A DNA stretch of 702 bases from Escherichia coli (lineage in GTDB: Bacteria > Pseudomonadota > Gammaproteobacteria > Enterobacterales > Enterobacteriaceae): the NCBI RefSeq assembly GCF_003334255.1, contig NZ_QOWU01000197.1. The stretch is one strand, 5' to 3'. Under the pieces are notes generated by a model, which did no database searches, was not told where the DNA came from, and saw only the letters and a list, made by a program, of their open reading frames with translations. The position numbers and the translations under genes are program-made. Every line of letters begins with the position of its first letter. Position 1 is the stretch's first letter. Positions 1 to 662 of this stretch are shown here, in pieces.

Positions 1-336
1 GGCAAATATGAGCCAGCGGGGATTGTCCACCGCGGGGAGTTTGTCTTCACGAAGGAGGCAACCAGCCGGATTGGTGTCGGGAACCTGTACCGCCTGATGC
101 GGGGCTATGCGGAAGGGGGGTATGTGGGTGCTGCCGGAAGTCCGGCGCAGATGCGGCGGGCGGAAGGTATTAATTTTAATCAGAACAATCACGTGGTGAT
201 TCAGAACGACGGTATCAACGGACAGGCCGGGCCGCAGCTGATGAAAGCGGTGTATGAGATGGCCCGTAAAGGTGCGCAGGATGAGCTCCGGCTGCAGTTG
301 CGTGATGGCGGTCTGTTATCGGGGAGCGGGCGATGA
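1..336 (+). CDS. H: Tail tape measure protein, C-terminal fragment (lambda gpH-like); 5' end lies upstream of the window
   Basis: Frame 1 is open with no stop from base 1 to TGA at 334-336. It translates as GKYEPAGIVHRGEFVFTKEATSRIGVGNLYRLMRGYAEGG...NNHVVIQNDGINGQAGPQLMKAVYEMARKGAQDELRLQLRDGGLLSGSGR*. The ORF track shows only 97-336 because it starts at the first ATG, which is internal. From memory this closely resembles the C-terminus of lambda gpH, and it sits immediately upstream of an M-like gene as in lambda. No search was run. Confidence 0.85.
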   Translation, partial: GKYEPAGIVHRGEFVFTKEATSRIGVGNLYRLMRGYAEGGYVGAAGSPAQMRRAEGINFNQNNHVVIQNDGINGQAGPQLMKAVYEMARKGAQDELRLQLRDGGLLSGSGR

Positions 337-567
337 AAACCTTTCGCTGGAAAGTGAAGCCGGATATGGAGGTGAACTCGCAGCCATCGGTGCGTGAAGT
401 GCGTTTTGGTGACGGGTACTCACAGCGTATGGCGGCAGGGCTGAATGCTGACCTGAAAACATACCGGGTGATGCTTTCCGTGACCCGGGAGGAGGCCCGT
501 CATCTGGAAGCGTTCCTGGCAGAGCACGGTGGCTGGAAGGCATTTTTGTGGAAGCCACCCTATGCAT
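316..567 (-). other. Antisense ORF, probably non-coding
   Basis: An 83-aa minus-strand ORF lying almost wholly inside the M gene. Its translation is Pro/Ser/Ala-rich and low-complexity, as expected when the complement of a GC-rich coding region is read. I recognise no family and did not find a convincing ribosome binding site. Confidence 0.15.
321..326 (+). promoter_or_regulatory. Shine-Dalgarno-like ribosome binding site for the M gene
   Basis: GGGGAG at 321-326, 6 nt upstream of the ATG at 333, embedded in the last codons of the tape measure gene. Confidence 0.6.
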
Positions 568-662
568 ACCGGCAGATAAAGGTGACCTGTGCCGGGTGGT
601 CTGCGCGGGTCGGGATGTTGCGCGTTGAGTTCAGCGCGGAGTTTAAGCAGGTGGTGAACTGA
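333..662 (+). CDS. M: Phage minor tail protein M (lambda gpM-like), complete, 109 aa
   Basis: ORF with ATG at 333-335 and TGA at 660-662, 109 aa, the same length as lambda gpM. The N-terminus MKTFRWKVKP, the internal motifs VRFGDGYSQR and EHGGWK, and the C-terminus RQIKVTCA.W..RV.MLRVEFSAEF.QVVN match my recollection of lambda gpM with scattered substitutions. GGGGAG lies 6 nt upstream of the start, which overlaps the upstream stop (ATGA). Confidence 0.9.
   Translation: MKTFRWKVKPDMEVNSQPSVREVRFGDGYSQRMAAGLNADLKTYRVMLSVTREEARHLEAFLAEHGGWKAFLWKPPYAYRQIKVTCAGWSARVGMLRVEFSAEFKQVVN
649..654 (+). promoter_or_regulatory. Shine-Dalgarno-like ribosome binding site for the L gene
   Basis: AGGTGG at 649-654, 7 nt upstream of the ATG at 662, embedded in the last codons of M. 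Confidence 0.5.

Follow-up and report, generated by a model that had tools for sequence, protein, structure and literature searches.

The window, by which we mean the whole 702-nt stretch of Escherichia coli DNA analyzed here, carries on its plus strand the 3' end of the tape-measure gene H (1–336, comprising the last 111 codons and a TGA stop at 334–336), the complete gene M (333–662), and the 5' end of gene L (662–702), all of them in the order in which they occur in phage lambda. Gene M encodes a 109-aa product of Pfam family PF05939 (Phage_min_tail), which we assign as the lambda gpM orthologue, a distal tail protein. All matching phages and prophages have the H stretch annotated as H or as tape measure, and the PHROG profiles 24, 1716, and 4346 ("tail length tape measure protein") match window 1–336 with their C-terminal ends; TIGR01541 (tape_meas_lam_C) gives a partial match in the same stretch. 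The encoded H end is 75.7% identical in amino acid sequence to residues 743–853 of lambda gpH and covers the equivalent of residues 818–849, the C-terminal helix seen in the lumen of the lambda tail tip, where 21 of 32 residues match. The L portion comprises the first 13 codons (MQDIHEESLNESV) of the tail-tip hub protein gpL, which matching records name "tail tip assembly protein L" or "phage minor tail protein L"; in the closest relatives of the window, the L product has 232 aa and shares 77.6% identity with its lambda counterpart.

We noted two local irregularities in H. First, DNA identity to lambda drops to 50% over window 121–180, as against 80–95% in the flanks, and phage 21 is at 77% in this stretch, which, judged from the alignment, looks like a segment that is hypervariable locally or has been swapped. 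Second, the run of six G residues at window 116–121 is a G5 run in Escherichia phage PhiR12_2_star (L001, about 6115–6120), where H is annotated as two CDSs, and a G7 run in the IMG/VR locus L024. Either change shifts the frame of roughly the last 70 tape-measure codons, including the tail-tip C-terminal helix, and the two variants are either sequencing errors or real mutations.

Gene junctions and ribosome-binding motifs

Both borders of gene M are overlaps preceded by Shine-Dalgarno-like motifs, which we read from the sequence. The motif GGGGAG (321–326, plus strand) lies inside the H end, 6 nt upstream of the M start, at the position of an annotated ribosome_binding_site in phage 21; a purine-rich motif is kept there, in variant forms, in 68 of 68 aligned homologous sequences. 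The M start codon (333–335) overlaps the H stop codon (334–336) in an ATGA at 333–336 on the plus strand, the four columns of which (A333, T334, G335, and A336) are invariant in all 68 homologues, and lambda shares this geometry (H end at 13103, M start at 13100). The motif AGGTGG (649–654, plus strand), inside the M end, is placed to serve gene L and again coincides with an annotated ribosome_binding_site in phage 21; CAGGTGGTGAACTGATGCAG is invariant in 68 of 68 sequences. Finally, the M stop codon (660–662) shares one base with the L start codon (662–664) in a plus-strand TGATG overlap at 660–664, invariant in the 68-sequence alignment and likewise shared by lambda, where M ends and L starts at 13429. 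The ATGA overlap is the arrangement expected for translational coupling of M to H, and, by analogy with lambda, M would probably be expressed from the late operon and be coupled translationally both to H upstream and to L downstream.

A search of the 702-nt window for promoter-like sites found none, and Rfam gave no match to it at E values up to 1; a hairpin at 14–32 on the minus strand is the only terminator-like match in the window and is at chance level. We also note that the overlap of M and L, which never varies in the E. coli set, is broken in the Salmonella phage Gifsy-2 (L090, NC_010393, 1929–3091), in which a lom homologue and sodC are inserted between M and L and gpM is 110 aa long.

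Identification of gene M

The open reading frame listing of the 702-nt window gives M an ATG start, 109 codons, and a TGA stop. When we searched all PDB chain sequences with phmmer, the product matched the lambda "Tail tip protein M" (8iyk_M, 109 aa) at an E value of 1.7e-54, residues 1–109 aligning without gaps on residues 1–109, and further entries were matched as lambda gpM (8iyl, 8k35, 8xcg, and 9e7m). PF05939 was the single Pfam match (E 9.3e-38, query residues 2–108 on positions 1–108 of the 108-position model), and the PHROGs family phrog_14 ("minor tail protein") matched at 2.3e-39. None of the NCBIfam models matches gpM, which reflects the coverage of that library and is no argument against the identification. 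A distant homologue was seen in PDB 25vf, chain 6 ("MF2 protein", 113 aa; E 1.4e-11, residues 2–107 aligned). Lambda gpM (NP_040596.1; PDB 8IYK, 8IYL, 8K35, 8XCG, and 9E7M) thus has the same 109-aa length, the same position between H and L, and the same overlaps as the window gene. The first-pass annotation of this DNA had pointed to the length and to both termini as being those of lambda gpM, and both points hold: the protein has 109 aa, and residues 1–10 and 106–109 are identical to lambda; the two peptide strings it quoted are present in the product at residues 11–23 and 30–61. The kept length is by itself weak evidence, because lengths of 108–116 aa are common to the whole PF05939 family (71 full-length members aligned), a range into which the 109 aa of the window product fits.

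To view the protein as a structure, we used an AlphaFold2 model built on the 71-member family alignment (mean pLDDT 78). The model is a β-sandwich with strands at 13–24, 30–51, 71–73, and 82–106, a helix at 52–65, and a low-confidence hairpin at about 25–40 (low confidence from 21 to 40) that is the counterpart of the E-loop. The best PDB match found with Foldseek was lambda gpM itself (8iyk_E, TM 0.91, rmsd 1.7 Å over 109 columns), followed by a phage T1 tail-tip chain (9l9p_H). The predicted fold of the window protein is thus that of tube proteins, with a β-sandwich, an extended E-loop hairpin, and one flanking α-helix. The T1 chain 9l9p_H and the N-domain of lambda gpV (8k36_A) share this β-sandwich, long hairpin, and single flanking helix. 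Compared with gpM, gpV has longer termini and an Ig-like C-domain. The distal tail proteins (Dit) of other siphophages include T5 pb9 and SPP1 gp19.1. In many Dit proteins the C terminus bears an additional galectin-like or carbohydrate-binding domain, which is absent from gpM; the window protein is likewise a small single domain without an extra C-terminal domain. Dit proteins, like gpM, form a hexameric adaptor ring between tube and hub (PMC10721106). The sequence identity of these Dit and tube-fold relatives to window gpM is 23% or less.

Distribution among phages and prophages

At the DNA level, the window shares 99.3% identity with Escherichia phage PhiR12_2_star, 94–97% with many Stx1- and Stx2-converting phages, and as much as 99.6% with prophages of complete E. 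coli genomes. It is matched in 3654 of 5426 complete E. coli genomes, although the best match is only 60–80% identical in 1477 of 3679 records; 237 records reach at least 99% identity. A "phage tail protein" encoded by a prophage of E. coli SCU-106 (WP_000847280.1) is 100% identical to window gpM, and the identical protein is encoded by at least 22 IMG/VR contigs. The best DNA matches, at 99.3–99.6%, are found among the genes for this prophage and Stx-phage form of gpM (WP_000847280.1; the PhiR12 series, 1720a-02, CP-1639, and VT1-Sakai); most members of the clade have Thr-47 where the window has Met-47, the remaining differences being a few synonymous changes. Codon 47 (window 471–473) is ATG in the window and ACG, for threonine, in lambda; within the clade of the window, 42 of 63 sequences encode threonine and 21 of 63 methionine at this codon. 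The M lineage of the window is a common E. coli lambdoid prophage type, found in Stx-converting and PhiR12-like phages.

Selection on gene M

We estimated dN/dS by the Nei-Gojobori method with bootstrap 95% confidence intervals, using as the sample 68 aligned homologues of the H(3')-M-L stretch, in which M is represented by 33 distinct nucleotide alleles encoding 11 proteins. Every one of the 68 aligned M copies has 109 codons and is free of internal stops. Against lambda, the M gene at 333–662 (plus strand) gave a dN/dS of 0.132 (95% CI 0.064–0.239), an approximate ratio given that synonymous sites are nearly saturated in this pair (dS 1.07), and 0 of 1983 bootstrap replicates reached 1. The ratio was 0.108 against phage 21 (dS 1.06, 95% CI 0.046–0.192) and lower still in less diverged pairs with dS of about 0.18–0.39, namely 0.085 against Stx1_111698 (dS 0.385, 95% CI 0.025–0.168), 0.070 against Stx2a_JNE130812 (dS 0.229), and 0.045 against Stx1_9793 (dS 0.177). 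The median over 504 M allele pairs was 0.097. All of these ratios are to be read with the recombination inside the alignment in mind, which violates the assumptions of simple pairwise dN/dS. Among the polymorphic codons of the clade to which the window belongs, 29 show synonymous variation alone, and 8 alter the encoded residue.

The proposal made from the sequence at the outset, that M is a functional orthologue under purifying selection and no pseudogene, is therefore supported, with dN/dS at 0.05–0.13 and all copies intact; the dN/dS comparison suggested along with it, now run, gives values far below 1 (for lambda, an upper limit of 0.24). We considered whether M could nonetheless be a decaying remnant in a cryptic prophage, intact only because its decay is recent and with selection on it relaxed. 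Defective lambdoid prophages are numerous in E. coli, only 702 nt are visible here, so that the completeness or inducibility of the parent prophage or phage lies beyond the reach of the sequence, and the adjacent H gene is frameshifted at the G6 run in PhiR12_2_star (one G fewer) and in L024 (one more). Against this stand the low dN/dS at dS of 0.18–1.07, which amounts to long-term constraint (a pairwise ratio averages the whole history and is insensitive to a very recent relaxation in one copy), and the 68 intact copies. Further, near-identical M genes are carried by phages that form plaques or can be induced (the PhiR12 series, Stx phages, and 1720a-02), and the closest genomic copy, in SCU-106, sits in a complete morphogenesis module (terminase-portal-protease-D-E-FI-FII-Z-U-V-G-T-H-M-L-K-I-J-stf). 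We regard recent decay as highly improbable. The dN/dS values together with the intactness of the 68 copies lead us to reject a pseudogene or relaxed selection, and these comparisons exclude a decaying pseudogene at the level of long-term evolution.

The same alignment bears on a second gene that might overlap M on the opposite strand, where an 83-aa open reading frame runs over 316–567 (minus strand). Such a frame does exist, and one phage record, that of YDC107_1, shows a hypothetical protein on the antisense strand of M/L. However, in 44 of the 68 homologues the 83-aa frame has either lost its start or acquired a stop, neither lambda nor phage 21 preserves its peptide, and a promoter-like site is absent; moreover, the synonymous sites of M have been free to change (dS of about 1.07), so that a second constraint is not visible. 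Long antisense frames are to be expected in GC-rich coding DNA, and the 83-aa frame is most likely a by-product of such a sequence. We reject it as a gene for want of conservation, its being one having a probability close to negligible. The antisense "hypothetical protein" of YDC107_1 (L088, CP025712) lies at 1728–2540 on the minus strand, across M and L, in a record in which L is not annotated, and probably reflects a mistaken gene call in that entry.

Differences from lambda gpM

The window protein differs from the product of gene M in NC_001416 by 23 amino acid substitutions (78.9% identity): G11D, D13E, A15N, V17Q, K22E, A33M, P34A, N40D, S45R, T47M, P51T, T56R, V57H, S60A, E63A, S70A, T74K, E78A, W79Y, K88G, S91A, S94G, and E105K. 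At the nucleotide level, the ungapped codon alignment has 76 differences in 330 nt (77.0% identity), and BLAST gives 77.6%. The first-pass annotation described the substitutions as internal and dispersed, and this is what we find, G11D being the first and E105K the last, with a spacing that a permutation test cannot distinguish from random: the longest identical run, of 10 residues, is equaled or exceeded in 96% of random placements, and the variance of the gaps among the 23 substitutions is unremarkable (P = 0.88). We thus reject clustering of the substitutions and special conservation of the termini; the identity of the termini is real, yet it is without statistical significance.

The family as a whole indicates where change is tolerated. 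Our family survey was conducted with phmmer against the full library and returned 1188 representatives of 50%-identity clusters at E ≤ 1e-3; conservation and entropy were calculated on the alignment of 71 full-length members. The positions that are at least 80% conserved among the distant 50%-cluster representatives, 19 in number, are all kept in window gpM (Phe-4, Trp-6, Pro-18, Phe-25, Gly-26, Asp-27, Gly-28, Tyr-29, Gln-31, Arg-32, Gly-36, Asn-38, Phe-61, Phe-71, Trp-73, Cys-86, Trp-89, Phe-104, and Val-107), and they include the conserved family motif F25-G-D-G-Y29. The 23 substituted positions have a mean family entropy of 3.04 bits, as against 2.21 bits elsewhere (Mann-Whitney P = 0.0013). 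In the predicted helix, the substitutions at 56, 57, 60, and 63 follow an i, i+1, i+4, i+7 spacing, from which we infer that they would occupy one exposed face. Judged by these comparisons, the 23 differences are ordinary lineage divergence at positions that vary in the family, and they accrued under purifying selection alongside similar divergence in H and L.

Co-variation and mosaicism in the tail module

Divergence from lambda is about equal across the three genes, with amino acid identities of 78.9% for gpM, 77.6% for gpL (for which a 99.3%-identical relative of the window served as proxy), and 75.7% for the gpH C terminus. The window carries a tail module of the Stx-phage/PhiR12 type, whereas lambda carries one of the lambda/21/HK629 type, and, as far as these alignments reach, the whole tail module simply belongs to a lineage different from that of lambda.

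The mosaic structure of the module is visible in the alignment. In five sequences (L036, L053, L055, L064, and L068), the last 47 nt of H (286–332) are 70% identical to the window and M is 98–100% identical; these recombinant H/M prophages are known from sequence, which does not imply that they are viable. In Stx1_111698 and Stx2a_JNE130812 (L083 and L084), M is 96–97% identical to the window over 333–540 and 81–89% identical over 541–662. These steps in identity place recombination junctions at the H/M border and inside M, so that mosaicism reaches within the 330-nt gene.

These observations bear on whether the substitutions might be adaptive, retuning the electrostatic interfaces of the gpM ring with gpL/gpJ, with gpV, and possibly with the gpH C terminus, such that M alleles need cognate partners. 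In its favor, the gpM-gpV and gpM-gpL/gpJ contacts are electrostatic (PMC10721106), 11 of the 23 substitutions alter charge, giving window gpM a net charge of +7 compared with +5 in lambda, gpL and gpM are similarly diverged from lambda, and M and L alleles co-segregate in our sample, where an M of the window type always has an L of that type after it. However, because the 68-sequence sample has only two deep clades, it has no power to detect co-variation at the level of residues, and the co-segregation of two adjacent genes across two clades is a single linked phylogenetic event, expected from linkage alone and therefore without statistical weight. Further, in natural genomes a window-type M can follow an H end of the lambda kind or have its 3' third alone exchanged, and such pairing of different H tails and C-terminal thirds with window-type M argues against tight cognate matching. 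The substituted positions vary freely across the family, no sign of dN exceeding dS is seen anywhere, and the resolved gpH C terminus contacts gpI, not gpM. We consider partner co-evolution unlikely, and the suggestion in the first-pass annotation that the substitutions may co-vary with gpL and with the tape measure C terminus finds no support in the two-clade sample, in the H/M recombinants, or in the position of the gpH C terminus on gpI. A more far-reaching version, in which the charge changes (11 of 23, net +2) retune the interfaces of gpM with gpV, gpL, and gpJ so that M of the Stx/PhiR12 type is incompatible with lambda-type partners, setting up a barrier that shapes where junctions fall, seems to us decidedly doubtful. 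If it were true, interface incompatibility would help to determine where the recombination junctions of lambdoid tail modules fall, for example at the border of H and M and at two-thirds of the length of M.

Role of gpM in the virion

In lambda, cryo-EM has revealed gpM as the distal tail protein, six copies of which, in two conformers, form one ring (PMC10721106, PMC11101478). The β-sandwich face of the ring stacks electrostatically on the last gpV ring, and its E-loops dock on a ring to which gpL contributes three HDI domains and gpJ three hub domains (PMC10721106, PMC11101478). In Ur-lambda, a dodecameric side-fiber collar touches gpM at Lys-2, Trp-6, and Arg-80 (PMC12617516). The partners of gpM in lambda are thus gpV, gpL/gpJ, and the Stf collar (PMC10721106, PMC12617516). 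The resolved gpH C terminus (818–842/849) forms a three-helix coiled coil on the gpI tripod in the lumen of the tip, and a contact between it and gpM is not described in the published lambda structures (PMC10721106, PMC12617516). The term "tail-tip assembly component", applied to gpM at first pass, is a dated one and undersells the protein, gpM being a structural, hexameric distal tail protein within the virion.

By analogy with lambda, six copies of window gpM would form a ring that connects tail tube and tail tip, its β-sandwich face stacking on the last gpV tail-tube ring and the E-loops on the opposite face docking onto the pseudo-hexameric gpL/gpJ hub. The outer surface would help to seat the side-tail-fiber collar, and the three residues that contact this Stf collar (Lys-2, Trp-6, and Arg-80) are kept in the window protein. 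The 79% identity and the predicted fold both point to such an assembly, a hexamer lying between the tube of gpV and the hub of gpL and gpJ; for ring assembly, binding partners, and translational coupling alike, lambda is the model from which we infer what window gpM would do.

Discussion

Overall, we conclude that window 333–662 almost certainly encodes a functional gpM, orthologous to that of lambda and acting as the distal tail protein in siphophage tails of the lambda type; it belongs to a widespread lineage of E. coli lambdoid prophages. This conclusion rests directly on the integrity of the open reading frame, homology, synteny, dN/dS, the conserved residues, and the predicted fold, and none of the evidence gathered contradicts it. 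The identical gpM is already known from RefSeq and from many phage and prophage records, and there is nothing new or unusual about it. As a routine piece of a lambda-type tail module, made up of the 3' end of H, M, and the 5' end of L, the window matters little in itself. It has modest value as a clean worked example, in which a proposed test for selection gave a clear answer (dN/dS of about 0.1). Further, the tail genes of lambdoid phages are mosaic even within 330 nt, which calls for caution when "co-variation" is read into adjacent, linked genes.
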